The notes beneath the pieces are model-generated. The model was not told the origin of the DNA and did not search any database. It worked only from the letters and a program-made list of their open reading frames with translations. A stretch of 64,000 nucleotides of DNA from Octopus vulgaris (taxonomy: Eukaryota). Made by a program: the position numbers and the translations under genes. Positions within the stretch are counted from its first letter, which is position 1. Each line of letters starts with the position of its first letter. The stretch covers positions 11,284,001-11,348,000 of the forward strand of contig OX597828.1 of NCBI GenBank assembly GCA_951406725.2, in the 5' to 3' direction. Shown piece by piece: positions 45,337 to 56,250 of the stretch.

Positions 45337-45629
45337 TATTTCTTTATTTACCTATAAAAAGGCCTACATAGAGGGGACATTACAAGGACAGACAAGGGAC
45401 ATTTAGGGTACAAACACGCTTCTTATATACACTATGAAAAAACGGATGGATTTATATATATTTTGCGGATGGGAGTTAAAAATATGAATGATGGTTGGAT
45501 GAAATTTGGGCCCGGGTTAGTGAATTAACCCGCCGGTTCGTTATCCCTTTTGGTAATCTTTTTCCCTTCTTTTATGCTCCGACCGACCGTGCAAGCACAG
45601 CCTCATGCATTTTCATCTTTCTTACCACT
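45337..45629 (-). mobile_element. 5'-truncated LINE-like 3' end with the B1-type tail
   Basis: TSD cgccaaaa(a)gagaga at 45322-45336 and 45630-45643. Minus-strand end ttgtctgtccttgtaatgtcccctctatgtaggcc...aataaagaaata. Confidence 0.75.
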
Positions 45630-46337
45630 CGCCAAAAGAGAGAGAGAGAGAGATCCGAACAGGGTTTTCCCTTTATATAGTTTTCCATTGCGAGCCTCGT
45701 TGTGATCTCGCGCATGGCAAATGGATGCAGGTGAGGTCTCGCTCCAGTCTCGGAGAAGGCAATGGCAGCCGTGAGATCTCATCCAATATGGCGCTGACTG
45801 CTTGTGCCGCTACAACAGCATCTGTGATGCCTTATTTCTTCGAAGTCTCCAGCACCAGTGAGAGATAGTGAAGCTTGATAGGAAGAGAAAAGAAATTTAT
45901 CGTCAAACCGTAGTTCTGGCCTGAATGCCTTGTACCAGAGTGGCGACTGTTAAAAGTACCAAAAAATCAGATGATAGTACTAAACCAAGCGATGGATAGT
46001 GTCGACCACTCAAGAACTCAGAATGCAAAGAAATCTTTTACAATGCTCTGGCAATTCCACCACTCACGACTGCGACTTTATTTTATGGTTTTCGAAGAAT
46101 CGAAAGGAAAAGTTGGCTTTTGTAGAATTTGAACTCAGAATACAGAGAGCAGTAAACAAATACCACAAGGTACTTTTGTCTTACACTCTAACGACTGCCA
46201 ATTCTCCGCCTTGATAATTTTCATAAAAATTGCTTCATTATGGAGACGACTTCAATCAGGACTTATATATAGTTTCGTTGCTAAGGTTTTTTGAAGGTAG
46301 AACGCTGGAACTTGTTTCGTTGTGTTAAAAATAGCGA

Positions 46338-47459: not shown

Positions 47460-48580
47460 GGCGCAGGCGTGTCTGTGTGGTAAGAAAATTGGGATCTTTT
47501 CGGTTTGAACGGCAGTTTTTAACATAATTTCTAGGTAACTAAAAAATTTTAAACTTCGTATACTGGTTGAATGTGTTTATAAAACATCTTTTTCTCTTGG
47601 CTTTATTGAAAAAAATTCTGTAGTTTGTAAGATATTTGTTGTTTTTTTTCTTCAATTTCTGCAATTTCAACCAATCAATGACCGTCTATTGAAGTGAAAA
47701 CATTCTGTGCCGTATGAATATGTCCCTCGTTTAAGAAACAGATTGGGTTTATTTACATTTGTGAAGAAAAAAAGATACCCTTTCCCCACCTCAAACCCTA
47801 ACCCTAACTAACCCTAACTCTTAAAACAGATTGAAATGCAATAGATCGATACTAGGGTCATAATTATGGGTGACAATTTCATATGACACCGCTAGAAAAA
47901 AAACCGAAAAGATCCGAAAATTGTATTTTTGATACCTAAATGGAATTGAGTAAGAGATTCATTGCCTCAAAGTGGCTTCATATGTATTCAATGTAAGAGG
48001 TCTATCGCCTCCTTAATGTTGTTTTTGTAATCGGTTTATTGCCTCAAAATGTTTTATAAAAGAACAATGTGCTCGGGTATACAGCAATCGGCGGGCGTTA
48101 CTGTTGCCCTCATTTTTCACCATTTCATTTGTCATTCATATCATTATGTGTGTGTGTGTCCAGCCCGCAGCTTCCTTTCTGTGTAAGGCCCTTGTGGCCA
48201 ATTAAATGAAATAAAGAAGATTGTTTCCCGACCACATAGTTCTGGGTTCAGTCCCACTATGTGTTGGCACCTTGGGCAAGTGTCTTCTACTATAGCCTCA
48301 GACTAACCAAAACCTTGTGATAGACAGAAACTAAAAGAAGTCCGTCGTATTGTGTGCGTGTCTTTGTGTCTGTATTTGTTCACCCACTATCAACACCGCT
48401 TGACAACTGGTGTTGGTGTGTTTACGTCCCCGTAACCTAGCGGTTCGGTGAAACAGAGCGATAGAATAAATACTAAGCTTTAAAACATAAGTCCTGGGGT
48501 AGTTTTTTCGATTAGAACTTTATAGGCTGTACTCCAGCATGGCTGCAGTTAAATAACTGAAATAAGTACAAGATTAAAGT
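47460..48580 (+). mobile_element. SINE-A interrupted in its head by a LINE-like 3' fragment (about 47925-48213) and a MITE
   Basis: The head stops at gtggtaagaaaattg and resumes at aagaagattgtttccc (48214). The insert ends gtgtaaggcccttgtggccaattaaatgaaata. Confidence 0.82.
47492..47915. mobile_element. MITE copy 3
   Basis: TSD gaaaattg at 47484-47491 and 47916-47923; the right TIR has an internal deletion. Confidence 0.92.
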
Positions 48581-49126
48581 TCAAATAATACTTTAGAATA
48601 CTTAGATTCTGCACTCCAGATGTGGAACACAAAGCTCTGAGTTCGATTCTAGCATGGGGAATAGTGAGTAAGTACTTTCTTTTACCAAAACTTCGGATTG
48701 ATTCAACTCTTATGAGTGAAAAAAATGGGTGAACAGAAACTGCGGAATCTTGTCAGATAGATTGATCCTGCAATTCAAAGACCCATGTTACAGACTACGT
48801 CATGGAGGTGTTACTTTAGGATTATATTAAGGTACACATGCGTGCGGAATACTCATCCACGTGTATCTCAGTTGCTTAGATAAGTGAATATTCATTGTCG
48901 AAACCGATAGAGATCCAATTATCCAACACCAGTTTCCTCTTATTACTATGGCCGGGATCCAGCCTGGGGCCGCAGCAACAAAGTCCAGCCGTCACGCTTT
49001 TCGGTCCATCATCACTGCCCCGAGGCCCTGGATAAATTCCAGGCCAGTGTCTGCAACCAAGTTGTAAGTGTGACGACGTTTTCCTCTTCTTATATAACCA
49101 TGAAGTGGGTTCCACAAGGCTAATTA

Positions 49127-49691
49127 TTGGGTTGTCTGGAAAGTTCGTGCCGATTTATAGTAGCTTACCTTTCGACTTATTCTAGAACATGGCGAGTCCA
49201 TAAAATAGGATTTGACTACACCCCCATTTAGAGCACAGTTTAAGCTACCTTTTCGTGGAAGAAGGTTTATGTTCCTATAACCTGTGCTAATTCTGTAACC
49301 CTTTAAAATGGAAGATAAGAAAGTTCATTTTCGGCACTTGATGCTTTGGGAAAGAGACAAAAAATGCTGCAGTTCGGCTGGGATGTGTTACCCCACCCTC
49401 CATATTCACCAGATATTGCTCCTTCGGATTTCCACTTATTCAGGTCTCTGATGAATAGTCTTAATGTTAAAAATTTCAATTCCTTGGATGACGTAAAAGA
49501 TACCTTGATGAATTCTTTGCCATGAAAGCACCTCAATTCTGGGAAGAGGGTATTTTCAAGTTAAAGGAAAGATGGAGACGCATTGTGCAACAAAATGATT
49601 CATATTTGGTTGATTAAAAATGTAATGGCAAGTATTTCTTGACATTTTTCTTTCCTTTAAAAATCGGCACGAACTTTCCGGACAACCCTAA
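49127..49691 (+). mobile_element. Mariner internal-deletion derivative, copy 2
   Basis: Same TIRs and same deletion point as 29380; GWDVLPHPPYSPDIAPSDFHLFRSL. Confidence 0.95.
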
Positions 49692-50289
49692 TAACTCTAA
49701 AACACAAATTGAAAGAGACTCCAGCATAGAATATAAGTTTGCCTCTAACCTATAAGATATATATGTATATATATATATGAAGAGAATAAATGAATCAGTA
49801 AGACTAGCTTATTCTCAAGATCTTAAATATATCAAATATCTGGAATGGAAACGAAGAATTTTCACCACAATCATATTATTGTACCAATATTGATAGTAAA
49901 ATGTGCATTATCACCACTTCAGCTTTATCTAACCGATGGAAAGCTGCTTTATGGAAAAGCTTCAGGAAGGGGCCTAATACAAATTGTTGGCATTTTTCTT
50001 AAGATCGTTTCTACTTTAAATTTAAAAGGATATGGAATATTGAATTGACAGAGCATACTGGCTTGCCATAAGACAAGTATAAATTGTGTATTCAAAAATA
50101 AAACCACCCACTTGGAAGAAAACCGTTGGTCAATTGCTAATTTAAGAATTATATAGAAACCCAACTGCAGCTATTTCAAATGATTTCTCTAAGGGCATTA
50201 AGAATTGGACATTGAGGGCTACAAAAACCTAACAATTAATAAAAATATAGCGTTCTTGTAAAAAAGCAAGAATAACAAACGAGTAATTT

Positions 50290-51558
<1,269 letters not shown>

Positions 51559-51914
51559 ATATATATATATATATATTTATGTCCTTCAGTCGGGAGAGAA
51601 TGGCGATACCCATGAATACATGGTCTCTGAAACTGAAGGGAAAGAAGAAGGGAAGTTACTTTCAAACAGAAAACCGGATATAATAGATTCTACATAGCCG
51701 CAAATTTCCTGGCACTGTGACTAGGTTAGAGATCAGTTTTACGATGTTCCTACTACAGCTGCTTAGTAAACTGATCGCCCCCATTCTGCGGTACTTAATT
51801 TCAGCTAGGGAGCCTGGCGCATTTATGAGTTAAATAATCTAGCTCCGGATAACTAGATATAAACTATAAACAATATGGGTGTCCGTCACACTTTCTCCTT
51901 GGCCTATCTATCAT

Positions 51915-52130
51915 TGATTTCAAATTTTGGCACCAGGCCTGCATGTTCGTGAGTGGTGGGTAATCGATTATTCCAACCCCATTACTCAACTGGTCCATAT
52001 TTTATCGACTCTAAAAGAACGAAAGGCAAAGTCGACCTTGGTGGAATTTGAACTCAGAACGTAAAGACGGACGAAATGCCATTTAGTATTTCGCCCGTCG
52101 CGGTAACGATTTTACCTGCTCGCCATCTTC
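51915..52130 (-). mobile_element. SINE-B2-type copy
   Basis: Central domain and head. Confidence 0.8.
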
Positions 52131-52779
52131 TGCTATCGATCATTGAATGTACGAGTGTATTGGTCAAATAAAATTGAAAACGTTTCTTTCTTTCTTTTCT
52201 TTTCTTTCTCCAAAATCTTTTTGTCGCAGACACTTTTGAATAAAACTGTTAAGATCCTGGTAAGTCCAGACTCGTAATTCAATTTTAATGATTCTAATGA
52301 TCATCTTAATTTCTTTTATTTCACTAATTATCTTGGAAACCAAATGATGGTCATAATATTTCACTTTATATTTCCGGCAAGACATAGAGCTCTTACAGGC
52401 GGCGGCGATTTGGCAGAGCCGTTAGAGCCAGATGTCAACTTTGCCTTCCATCTTTTCAGATAAAAACGAAGCACTTAGGCAGAAGATTGGTAGAATTGGT
52501 AGAATTGTAAGAACTAAAAAACCGGATACTTCGCAGTATTTCAGATTTTTGCGTTCTGAGTTCATATCTTGTCGCAACCTACTTGACTAAAGCGCTTAAT
52601 CCTTAGTTGCATTTCAGAGAGTCCTCCCTGTTGCAACTATTCGGATCAGGTTTCTGCAGTGAGGAACGCTTCATCTCTCTCACAAGTCTCAGAAGCTCCG
52701 TGAAGTGTCATGGATACTGCCTCTGAATGAAAGATTTTCATAAGCGCAGGCGTGGCTGTGTGGTAAGAAACTTGCTTCC

Positions 52780-54255
52780 GTGCATGCGTCAGGTTATTTG
52801 CTGTGTTGATTTTTGACGAGACGGACGGAATTTTTTGAGCTGCTTGCCAGCGGTTTGTTGGTGAGTGTTGTACTAGTGGAAAAGAATGTATTCGGACCTT
52901 AGCGAGTATGAACTATCCTCAGCAGAGGAGGAGCTCGTTAAGGCGGTAAACAGAATGGACGAGCATTTGGAAAGAGTAAAGAGTTTTGCTGAGGCAGCAG
53001 AGGTAAAGAAAAAGGAAGTACACCTAACCGGACTGAAGGAGCTGAGTAAGATGACACAGAAGGTGGGAAGTAATGTAAAGTTATTACTCCCGAAAATGGT
53101 TATGGTAAATATGGAAAAGAAGACTATTACCTACAAGGTGCTCCCAGTGGAGAGTAGAAGGTGGAGCGGATGGAGATGGAAAAAATTGAAAAAACTCTGA
53201 AGGGGCTTTCGAAGGAAGTAAGGTAAATAGGAAGAGGACATGGGACGGTGGTTGTCCAGTTTAGGACAGAAGAAGAGGCAAAGAGGCTGGCGAGTACGAC
53301 TGTAAAAACTGAGAAACTAGTACTTCTACCCACCTGCCTTGGAAGAAAGACTTCTAAGGTGAGGGTAGAAGGAATTCCACCTGACACAGAAGTGGCTTGG
53401 GTTGCGGCAGCCGTCTTCGTTGGAAGTGAGGAGGAGGCGGCTGTTCTTCAAGCCACAGAGACGGAGGAAGGAAGCTATAAAGGAAAAATACTGGAAATGA
53501 TCATACAAGCGGAGGCGAAGGAGCTGGAAAATTTGGCGGAAACGGTGACGATGGGAGAAATAGTATTGAGAGTATGGGTAGAGGGCAGAATTCCGCGATG
53601 CTTTAAATGTGGCCAAAAAGGCCACATTAGAGCACACTGCCCTCTACAGAAGAAAACAATAGAGGAAACAACAGATGAACCAGTTGTGGAGATGGAAGAG
53701 AAAAAAAAGGAAGAAAAGAAAGATGGACGAAAGGAGGAAGAATGGATAGTAACAGAGAGTAGAAGGAAGAAGAGGAAGAAAAGAAAGAACACTGAGTGTG
53801 ATGTGGTACCCCAGTCCAACTCCATCCCACCCAAGACCACTCAGACCCACCCGACAGGCCACCCACCCACTCCCTTTCCCCACAAGAAAAGGAAAAAAGT
53901 GCAGACACCACAGAATTTAGAAGACCCCTCCCACGGTGAAAAAGGTTTCGGAAGAATGTTGTATTTGAGCGATAGCGAGAGTGAAAATAGAACAACTAGA
54001 CCAGAGATTAAAGACGAATTGGGACTCAGAGGTAGCGAGTGGTGTTACTCAGTGTGGGGTGAGTAGCACACTCTTCATATTTTAATTTTCAGATATCATG
54101 CATGTTATCATAACCTTAATTTATTTTCTCGTGTTCATTTTCATGTCACTCACGGTATCATATTTTATTTTTACATATTTTTAATTGTTATATGTCCCCA
54201 CATGTTTTGTAGTGTCCCCTCTATGTTATGCCTTTATGGCAATTTGAAAGAAATA
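52780..54255 (+). mobile_element. ORF1-only non-LTR retroelement, copy 1
   Basis: Lies between aagaaacttgcttcc (52765-52779) and aagaagcttgcttcc (54256-54270). Short 5' UTR, ORF1 and a ~190 bp 3' UTR ending aaagaaata. Confidence 0.88.
52886..54066 (+). pseudogene. L1/Tx1-type ORF1 (gag-like): RRM-like region plus CCHC zinc knuckle; frameshift and stop near 53160-53230
   Basis: ORFs 52886-53200 and 53248-54066; GTVVVQFRTEEEAKRL, KVRVEGIP, CFKCGQKGHIRAHC (CX2CX4HX4C) and a basic RRKKRKKRK tract. Confidence 0.85.
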
Positions 54256-54270
54256 AAGAAGCTTGCTTCC

Positions 54271-55717
54271 GGTTACCCAGAGTGCATTTGGTTTGTTGTT
54301 TGTGTGCGAGTCGGAAGTTTTTTTTTTGTTTTGCTCTTTGAGGTTAGAGATGTACTCAGACCTTAGCGGGTCTGAGCTGTCTTCTTCAGAGGAGGAGCTG
54401 TTGAGAGCAGTAGAAGGTATGGATGAATATTTGAAGAAAATGAAGAATTTCGCGGAGGCTATGGAGGTGAAGAGAAAAGAGGTGGATCTATCAAGAATGA
54501 AGGAGCATGGAAAAATGGTGCAGAAAGTGGGCGGCAACGTGACGTTGTCATCCCAACAAAGAATAATGGATGGCATAAAAAGAAGAACAGTCATATACAA
54601 AGTTTACTCGATAAAGAGTAAGAAAGTCGACCAAATAGAAATAGAGAAAATAGAAAAGGCAGTAAAGGAGGAATCCAACGGAGTAATATACATGACAAGA
54701 GGATGTCAATATGGGACAATGGTAGTGCAGTTTAGAACAGAGGAGGAGGCAAGGAGGCTGGCGGGTAAAAATGTAAAAACGGAGGAAATGGTCCTTCTAC
54801 TCACGTATCTTGGAAGAAGGAATTCCAAGATAAGGGTAGAAGGAATCCCGCTTGGGTTGCGACAGCCGTCCTCATTGGAAGAGAAGAGGAAGTGACTGTC
54901 CTCCAGGCCACGGAAACGGAAGAAGGAAGATTTAAAGGGAAGTCGCTTGAACTTATCATTCAGACCGTGGAAAAACAACTGGAAAATTTGGCAGAGACAG
55001 TATCATTGGGAGAGATAGTTCTAAGAACGTGGGTGGAGAACAGAATCCCACGCTGCTTTAAATGTGGCCAAAAGGGCCACATTAGAGCGCACTGCCCTCT
55101 ACAGAGGAAAACGACAGAAGAAGCGGCGGTGGAGACGGAGGAGGAGGAAAAGGAAGAATTACAGATAGATGGAAGGAACAAGGGGGATGAATGGACAGTG
55201 ACCGAGAACAAAAGGAAAAAGAGAAAGAGGAAGAACAGTCAGTGTGATGTGGGACCCCAGACCAACTCCATCCCACCCAAGACCACTCAGACCCACGCTC
55301 ATCATATGACACCAAACCTACCCACCCCCTCTCCTCACAGGAAAAAAAAGAAGAAAGAACAGACACCACAAAATTTAAAAGACCCCTCCCCCGGTGAAAA
55401 AGGTTACGTGTACATGGTGGAGAGAGTGTTGTCACTCAGCGATGGGGGAAAAGGTAAGACTAGATTAAAGACTAAAGAGGACTCAGGACTCAGAGGTGGC
55501 GAGTGGTGTTACTCAGTGTGGGGTGAGTAACACACTTTTCATATTCTCATTTCTCAAGTTATCATTCATGTATCATTATTTTAATATTTTGATTTTAATG
55601 TTTTTCATGTTCATTTTCATGTGTCATTCATAGCCTCATATTTTTATTGTTATATGTCCCCACATGTGTTGTAGTGTCCCCTCTGTGTAAAGCCTTTATG
55701 GCAATTGAAAAGAAATA
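54271..55717 (+). mobile_element. ORF1-only non-LTR retroelement, copy 2 (different subfamily)
   Basis: Followed by aagaagcttgcttc (55718-55731) and the resumed SINE-A. Same architecture as copy 1 with a different 5' UTR. Confidence 0.88.
54350..55530 (+). pseudogene. L1/Tx1-type ORF1 paralog with one frameshifting deletion near 54850
   Basis: MYSDLSGSELSSSEEELL..., GTMVVQFRTEEEARRL, an identical knuckle CFKCGQKGHIRAHC and the same C-terminus EWCYSVWGE. Confidence 0.85.
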
Positions 55718-56250
55718 AAGAAGCTTGCTTCTCAATTACATGGTTCCGGGTTCAAGCCCATTGCGTGGCTCCTTGGGCAAGTGTCTTTTTACTATAGCCT
55801 CAGAACGACCAAAGGATGAAAGAGAAAGTCGACCTCAGCGGAATTTGAACTCAGAACGTAACGGCAGACGAAATATGGCTACCCATTTCGCCAAGCGTGC
55901 TATTCTGCCAGCTCGCCGCCTTGCTCACACAATATATATGTACGTACACACAATATGTATGTGAGTGGATTTGGTAGACGGAAACTGAAAAGAAGCCCGT
56001 CGAATATATATGCTTATATGTGTGCCTTTCTGTCTGTGTTTGTCTCACCCCCACGCCACCATCGCTTGACAACCGATGTTGGCGTGTTTACCACCCCCGT
56101 AACTTAGCGGGTCGGCCAAAGAGACCCATAGAACAAGTACCAGGCTTACAAAGAATAAGTCCTGGGATCGATTTCTTCGATTAAAAGGCAGTACTCTAGC
56201 ATTGCCGCAGTCAAATGATTGAAACAAGTAAAAGAATAAAAGAATAAAAT
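55718..56250 (+). mobile_element. Remainder of the host SINE-A (head start at 52743-52779), with a 150 bp templated insert
   Basis: catggttccgggttcaagccc...ccttgggcaag continues the head; the family tail ends at about 56250. Confidence 0.9.

Follow-up and report, generated by a model that had tools for sequence, protein, structure and literature searches.

How did three copies of one SINE come to be interrupted at the same position by elements that carry the same 3' tail, and did a single enzyme put them there? In the window, by which we mean the whole 64,000-nucleotide stretch of Octopus vulgaris DNA analysed here, all four 3' junctions listed in the initial annotation are present. At locus 1 the end at 48213 is followed by AAGAAGATTG, at locus 3 the ends at 54255 and 55717 are each followed by AAGAAGCTTG, and at locus 2 the minus-strand junction is real although its coordinate shifts from 51127 to 51126, the last base of GAAATA, beyond which lies AGAAGCTTG. 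All four map to GGT-AAG[A/T]AG of SINE-A (the hyphen marks the junction), within about 1 nt of each other and just after the A-box-like motif, as had been claimed; the SINE-B1 junction at locus 2 falls on the GGT-AAG base or one base further, because one A fits both sides. A matching piece of SINE-A head lies upstream of each locus, and the subtype at all three is AAGAAG (Table 1). The 15-bp duplication is confined to locus 3 within the window; the join of element and target at locus 1 is a microhomology, 11 nt long at most, and the SINE-B1 dimer of locus 2 has a duplication of about 3 bp. A MITE of 424 bp has itself inserted into the locus 1 element and is flanked by an 8-bp duplication, from whose length we take the MITE to be hAT-like. 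Three kinds of insert had been proposed and we find two, since the supposed LINE-like 3' fragment of locus 1 is a terminal piece from an ORF1-only family. At locus 3, contigs of four public runs break inside the SINE head and so could not reveal an empty allele. SINE-A carries A- and B-box-like motifs by eye; ARAGORN found 0 tRNA genes, and a search of one copy of the head in Rfam brought no tRNA match.

Table 1. Features of the three SINE-A loci and one control element, in window coordinates.
Feature	Position	Strand	Remarks
SINE-A head piece, locus 1	47460..47486	+	A-box-like motif, ends AAGAA
MITE, later insertion into the 5' junction of locus 1	47492..47915	.	12-bp terminal inverted repeats; 8-bp duplication 47484-47491 / 47916-47923
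ORF1-only family 3' end, 5'-truncated, locus 1	47916..48213	+	microhomology join; relatives at SINE-A site 21/29
SINE-A body, locus 1	48214..48575 (end approximate)	+	
SINE-A body, locus 2, truncated	50991..51125	-	
SINE-B1 dimer, locus 2 (head + two units; tails end 51308, 51126)	51126..51538	-	~3-bp duplication
SINE-A head piece, locus 2	51539..51557	-	
SINE-A head piece, locus 3, with 5' copy of 15-bp duplication (52765-52779)	52743..52779	+	
ORF1-only element 1, locus 3	52780..54255	+	frameshifted ORF1, CCHC zinc knuckle, without ORF2 remnant
15-bp target repeat separating stacked elements 1 and 2	54256..54270	+	
ORF1-only element 2, locus 3	54271..55717	+	72.5% identity to element 1; frameshifted ORF1, CCHC knuckle
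3' target repeat + SINE-A body, locus 3	55718..56245	+	antisense SINE-B piece inside, ~55814-55923
Sister LINE family 3' end, control outside the finding	45337..45630	-	same tail type, dispersed targets

Beyond the window, we picked copies of each family by element sequence alone and then scored them at the SINE-A site; the best 40 candidates were scored per genome search, and the samples are therefore biased to young, well-preserved copies. A young LINE of 5.44 kb, with two ORFs and the APE endonuclease and reverse transcriptase of the L1/Tx1 group, ends at GGT-AAGTAG, just after the A-box-like motif, in 38/38 copies. Under Kojima's rule for Tx1 target specificity (more than 20% of flanks in one sequence type), this LINE is target-specific. 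Its ORF2 contains Exo_endo_phos, RVT_1 and zf-RVT (Pfam), its catalytic motifs align with those of the L1 endonuclease in sequence comparison, and its best PDB match is human L1 ORF2 (E 2e-52), with R2 ranking behind. An ORF2 of 1,126-1,133 aa is kept in eight of 41 copies examined, and ORF1 is separate and carries a zf-CCHC. The element thus has the features of the L1/Tx1 group (APE, reverse transcriptase, C-terminal zinc-binding region, separate ORF1, 5' truncation, target duplication and no LTR), and the suspicion that an L1/Tx1-type APE element stands behind the site is borne out by a LINE with intact ORF2 copies found there. None of the ten homologues looked up is a named Tx1 protein, the named ones being limpet hypothetical proteins. 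All 38 young targets are of the AAGTAG subtype, against 80/100 or 28/42 of available sites. Because the window loci are AAGAAG and every site observed for the young LINE is AAGTAG, the enzyme behind the window loci was probably an older relative; older LINE fragments do lie at AAGAAG sites (L121, L126). The ORF2s that target SINE-A group together with 83/89 support, on 84 alignment columns only. The endonuclease domains of the young LINE and of close non-specific relatives share about 43-52% identity where alignable. Relatives flanked by (CT)n were also seen in the genome.

The ORF1-only families share the site. Of 29 sampled copies of the element-1 family, five lack a 3' end and 22 of the other 24 lie at the SINE-A site; so do 21 of 29 copies of the second family, the one that ends at locus 1. 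For LINE and ORF1-only families alike the preference is above chance, for SINE-B1 only modestly so, and the sharp single-site peak that had been forecast exists. Genome-wide, the preference holds for two of the three window loci. The ORF1s of these elements are of the zinc-knuckle type and 25-40% identical to that of the LINE; the last 45 nt or so, the tail, is common to both and, beyond ORF1, nothing else is. We found no ORF2 remnant in the ORF1-only elements, which are multi-copy, with their own ends and their own duplication. Given the common site and common tail, they are likely served by the ORF2 of this LINE.

The shared tail had been taken to mean that one endonuclease serves every element that bears it, SINE-B1 included, and that all of them prefer the SINE-A site. 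As a general rule this is refuted. The tail matches 90,041 places in the genome, most of them, among those listed, SINE-B1. Of 30 sampled SINE-B1 tails none lies at the SINE-A site, and a broader sample of 76 has one that does. Strict tails within 30 nt upstream of a SINE-A anchor number no more than 226, a figure obtained with a search pattern of different stringency from that behind the 90,041. SINE-B1 duplications range from a few to more than 20 nt. Two LINE families that carry this type of tail, on separate ORF2 branches, are dispersed: the sister family is at SINE-A in 1/24 copies and family Y in 0/29 by eye (a loose rule scored two loci, neither of them SINE-A on the inspected junctions). 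SINE-B1 therefore stays below the level of a site-specific passenger (more than 20% of copies at the SINE-A site); well under 1% of its copies are there, yet this is a roughly 14-fold enrichment. Where SINE-B1 does enter SINE-A heads, it falls on or beside the same base as the LINE junctions, which is compatible with the same nick. Tails followed by AGAAG are in SINE-A heads in 6/30 cases against 16/1,145 background sites (odds ratio 18), an enrichment that exceeds what a 5-mer preference explains. A seventh of those 30 resembles SINE-A by eye. On balance, we think it very improbable that one enzyme accounts for all of these elements. A logo built over all tails would show GGTA/AGAA and not the SINE-A site, because SINE-B1 dominates the tails.

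The end of the SINE-B1 tail matches that of LINE family Y, and an AGAA start follows in 8/13 copies of the closest family-Y sub-branch, a count that covers 13 of 30 loci, for the most part those nearest in sequence. Two other candidates were rejected. A SINE-B-specific LINE within this sub-branch would be at odds with only 2/13 copies lying in a SINE-B head. SINE-B1 targeting of its own body, as a B1 followed by that body might suggest, does not fit the single duplication that flanks the whole dimer or composite in L020, L021, L203 and L241; many SINE-B1 dimers are for that reason better seen as inherited structures.

The duplications themselves are informative. In 10 of 31 young full-length LINE copies the target differs at duplication bases 11-15, and in 10/10 of these the 5' copy does not reproduce the target, nine ending in CTAAC; an extra base in the same region is found in 12/31. 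Judged from these junctions, the 5' copy is remade to resemble the element's own sequence. It is also possible that mainly RNA-DNA pairing picks the site, with transcripts that run into the flanking target selecting it after a weakly specific nick, as has a precedent in R1/R2 (PMC6895275). The rebuilt 5' copies fit such pairing, as does the young copy L223, with AAGAAG on its 5' side and AAGTAG on its 3' side. So do the SINE-B1 tail variants, which predict the first flanking bases (a G start in 18/25 against 2/75 by eye, p=2.5e-12); these bases match the sequence behind the tail in SINE-B1 dimers. However, 3' flanks retain target-specific variants from base 8 on, so that pairing would span a few bases, too few for 38/38, and the truncated copy L222 carries a faithful target duplication. 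We hold it very unlikely that pairing is what mainly chooses the site.

Ty3 and the TRE elements integrate through tethering to factors of RNA polymerase III. Similar factors on the internal promoter of the SINE, and not DNA reading by the endonuclease, might direct insertion here: the site is directly behind the A-box-like motif, the 2/13 family-Y sub-branch copies found in a SINE-B head occupy its corresponding region, and the strong re-use of some loci could reflect bound factors. But base-exact junctions and the choice of subtype (38/38 AAGTAG against 80/100 or 28/42 available) suit direct sequence reading, and the SINE head is a promoter only putatively, with no tRNA match in Rfam. Tethering seems to us very unlikely.

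The site-specific LINE and the ORF1-only families stack in mixed arrays. As many as 12/29 element-1 loci adjoin another element, against a fill of SINE-A sites of about 2% at most. Genome-wide, exact junctions number 1,476 filled and 68,385 empty. Across 28 loci, element ends have 99.5% identity and host SINE bodies 92.5%, and 5'-truncated copies end at the same SINE-A base, which argues that the insertions were independent. Hitch-hiking of composites in a transposing SINE, segmental duplication or unequal recombination is largely refuted and retains almost no probability, because the inserts are younger and more uniform than the SINEs that hold them, families follow one another in different orders (element 1 precedes element 2 in the window, the reverse in L064) and truncation points vary among copies, although near-identical neighbours in some arrays (L099, L237) suggest that local duplication may lengthen them.

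We therefore favor, as the probable explanation, a division of labor in which the APE endonuclease of the LINE nicks the SINE-A site and its reverse transcriptase copies ORF1-only RNAs via the shared tail, while SINE-B1 depends for the most part on another LINE of this group, one without site specificity. The bottom strand would be nicked opposite GGT-AAG[T/A]AG, target-primed reverse transcription would start from the tail, and the top strand would be cut about 15 nt downstream. A cDNA end with a few target-like bases could then anneal in the overhang and overwrite its last bases; this would rebuild the consensus site ahead of each new copy, and re-use of occupied sites would give arrays. SINE-B1 at SINE-A would be a minor outcome of a partner that prefers short AGAA or GGTA starts. 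Such starts agree with what follows the SINE-B1 tail in dimers, and both are present at the SINE-A site; the residual enrichment may come from SINE-B1 copies that occasionally used the site-specific enzyme. That the elements use SINE-A as a safe harbour, as had been proposed, is conjecture. More tentatively, we speculate that an active LINE lineage has specialised on the SINE promoter region, with its tens of thousands of perfect targets. Its recognition would have shifted by one base, from AAGAAG to AAGTAG, with SINE subfamily turnover, and it would rewrite targets to its own consensus and build arrays that renew themselves and also house many ORF1-only parasites, its same-tail sister enzymes being non-specific. 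If true, this would offer a natural series in which to follow the origin of base-exact targeting. The presence in one genome of a site-specific APE element, young and apparently intact, and of close non-specific relatives leaves the determinants of specificity, enzyme or RNA ends, open to direct test by domain swaps. A common 3' tail would mark a partner group, not a single enzyme or target, and annotation will split or mislabel such arrays.

The target range of such elements, RNA genes, microsatellites and DNA transposons, now appears to extend to a SINE head, which we did not find as a retrotransposon target in the literature searched; Repbase may already name these families. Tx1 of Xenopus inserts into Tx1D, Keno into U2 and Kibi/Koshi into microsatellites (PMC4494074). 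Like the octopus LINEs they are sequence-specific APE elements with sister families of differing targets; unlike in octopus, the targets named in the parts of that paper available to us include no SINE. In R2/R1, target-like sequence at the start of the RNA allows the cDNA to anneal to the target (PMC6895275), although R2 has an RLE enzyme and an rDNA target, whereas the octopus homology lies inside the 15-bp duplication and is read from sequence alone. HAL1 (half-L1) is non-autonomous and encodes ORF1p alone (PMC5753468). The octopus families likewise have ORF1 alone, with ORF2 remnants absent, and would inherit base-exact targeting; they resemble HAL1 in working only, since HAL1 descends from mammalian L1 and they do not, their zinc-knuckle ORF1 being 35-40% identical to that of the LINE in this genome, and the portions of PMC5753468 available mention neither site specificity nor mixed arrays for it. 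The closest likeness is to the crocodilian Tx1-Mar LINEs and their SINEU passengers, a Tx1-group LINE with non-autonomous passengers that prefer one site inside another abundant transposon, to differing degrees (90%, 23% and 13%), and whose tandem insertions have a duplication of about 16 bp between them (PMC4494074). There the target is a DNA transposon and here it is a SINE head, and, unlike the crocodilian system as far as that source describes it, the octopus has protein-coding ORF1-only passengers, a young LINE with intact ORF2 and a 5' duplication that appears rebuilt.

All four insert/SINE-A junctions that the initial annotation had reported are present on inspection of the window sequence. 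At locus 3, each of the two ORF1-only elements (elements 1 and 2) is bounded by a 15-bp target repeat; the elements are 72.5% alike, and each has a CCHC knuckle in an ORF1 disrupted by frameshifts. A single pattern finds 13 SINE-A heads in the window, the degraded head of locus 2 being missed by it. At about 49129-49690 lies a short element whose inverted ends match and which contains a transposase-like remnant; by eye it looks Tc1/mariner-like.

Inserts and interrupted SINE-A copies in the window
Feature	Position	Strand	Description
Sister LINE 3' end	45337-45630	-	tail of the type shared by the inserts below; lies within a different repeat, duplication ~14 bp
Locus 1			SINE-A head, 424-bp MITE, 298-bp 3' fragment, SINE-A body
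MITE	47492-47915		within 5' junction of locus 1; 12-bp inverted ends, 8-bp duplication
Locus 2		-	head piece, SINE-B1 dimer with ~3 bp duplicated, body
Locus 3			SINE-A head, elements 1 (1,476 bp) and 2 (1,447 bp), SINE-A body

Targeting of the site, GGT followed by AAGAAG or AAGTAG in the SINE-A head, is real and sharp for a young LINE and its ORF1-only passengers. To assess families, the 2.8-Gb genome was searched with element sequence only and the flanks were then read, the best 40 candidates being scored and 25-30 loci returned per search. Among these best-scoring copies, 22 of the 24 element 1 relatives that have a 3' end finish at the site (5/29 lack that end), as do 21/29 other copies of the locus-1 fragment, 20 of them at AAGAAG and none at AAGTAG. 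Several relatives of this fragment have a zinc-knuckle ORF1 end within 1.5 kb upstream, and it thus represents a second ORF1-only family. Exact junctions genome-wide number 1,476 filled versus 68,385 empty sites. The ORF1-only elements share with the young LINE only the last ~45 nt, plus 25-40% ORF1 identity, and no ORF2 remnant was found in them. In two copies of the locus-1 family (L047; window 47482-47491), truncation falls at one and the same internal AAGAAG, where element and target share microhomology. Several ORF1-only families (window 52780-52790; loci L098, L099 and L133) start with a GCGCATG-type near-palindrome, which we take to resemble an NRF1 site and which may be their internal promoter.

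The likely driver of these insertions is the young LINE, a 5.44-kb element reached through arrays adjoining element 1 copies. Its ORF1 has a zf-CCHC domain and its ORF2 has APE, RT and zf-RVT domains; the closest solved protein to ORF2 is human L1 ORF2, with whose catalytic motifs the endonuclease motifs align. The LINE is a putative member of the Tx1 clade sensu stricto. Its copies are 96-99% identical to one another, and ORF2 is still full in 8 of 41 examined. All 38 best-scoring copies end at the SINE-A site, always of the AAGTAG subtype, whereas that subtype makes up 80 of the 100 first-listed exact empty sites (by eye; p=3e-4) and 28/42 heads in background DNA (p=3e-7), a bias that could in part reflect the older subtype being more diverged. 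Because the LINE ends are 99.5% identical across 28 loci while their host SINEs are 92.5% identical, these copies are independent insertions. ORF2 fragments from related families likewise terminate at this SINE-A position, in two cases at the AAGAAG form.

In 10 of 31 young full-length LINE copies the target departs from the common form at duplication bases 11-15; the 5' duplication copy fails to reproduce the target in all 10, ending in CTAAC in 9, and 12/31 have one extra base at that spot. In one deeply truncated copy the duplication is faithful and spans 16 bp; in one slightly truncated copy it spans 9-10 bp. These junctions suggest target cuts staggered by ~15 nt, with a cDNA end carrying target-like bases that would anneal at the target; an annealing step of this kind has been put forward for R2 and for certain R1 elements (PMC6895275). 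Another element adjoins 12/29 element 1 loci and follows 4/30 of the exact filled junctions sampled, and since at most ~2% of sites are filled genome-wide, stacking is far above chance. Family order varies between arrays. At least seven elements make up one long mixed array (L097, G000:C7:13473000-13482999, with L096), among them a LINE of family Y, which is dispersed elsewhere but here occupies the array site with an offset of one base. The full LINE is last before the SINE body in four arrays (L095, L100, L105, L215) and first in L208.

The proposal that a shared tail means one endonuclease for all inserts does not hold, as SINE-B1 and two same-tail LINE families lie mostly off the site. The sister LINE family is dispersed and prefers short TCT/TAT starts (1/24 at SINE-A). 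Family Y, whose tail end matches that of B1, has dispersed targets (0/29 at the site), and its closest sub-branch has an AGAA start in 8/13 copies, as in one B1 subtype. The three lineages separate in an ORF2 tree of 84 columns (100/100, 99/99; SINE-A group 83/89). A further LINE of the L1/Tx1 group (L066, about 1-800; one copy) ends before a (CT)n microsatellite, like Kibi. Limpet homologues of ORF2 (P0023, P0174-P0183) have locus tags that run nearly consecutively on a contig of one length, a hint that another mollusc carries a related LINE in tandem.

The tail pattern suggested for checking this proposal matches the genome 90,041 times, mostly SINE-B1 among those listed; none of 30 sampled lies at the SINE-A site, and strict tails within 30 nt upstream of a SINE-A anchor number only 226. 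After 76 B1 tails in DNA not selected for this came SINE-B's own body (39), other GGT (16), TAT (6), other AGA (5), other sequence (9) and the SINE-A site (1, probably the B1 junction of the finding itself). SINE-B1 at this site is mostly incidental. However, of the B1 tails that have AGAAG next (739 in total), 6/30 lie in SINE-A heads versus 16/1,145 background sites (p=9e-6), which counts against an incidental presence; a minority of B1 may therefore use the site-specific enzyme, or family Y may read a longer motif. Which base comes first in the flank can be predicted from the B1 tail variant, an indication of short RNA-DNA pairing. SINE-B dimers, and composites whose two tails differ, occur inside one duplication (L020, L021, L203, L241, window 51126-51538), and multi-unit SINE-B RNAs appear to transpose whole.

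ORF1-only elements are already known from HAL1 (PMC5753468), and an octopus repeat annotation describes 13 recently active L1-Tx1 families (PMC13282606), the words 'target' and 'nested' being absent from its main text in a word search, as is 'SINE' from that of PMC8869645. We found no LINE targeting a SINE head in the literature covered, mainly open-access papers. The closest case in the sources consulted is crocodilian Tx1-Mar with SINEU, which has in common with the octopus system a target within another transposon, tandem stacking and unequally choosy passengers (PMC4494074).
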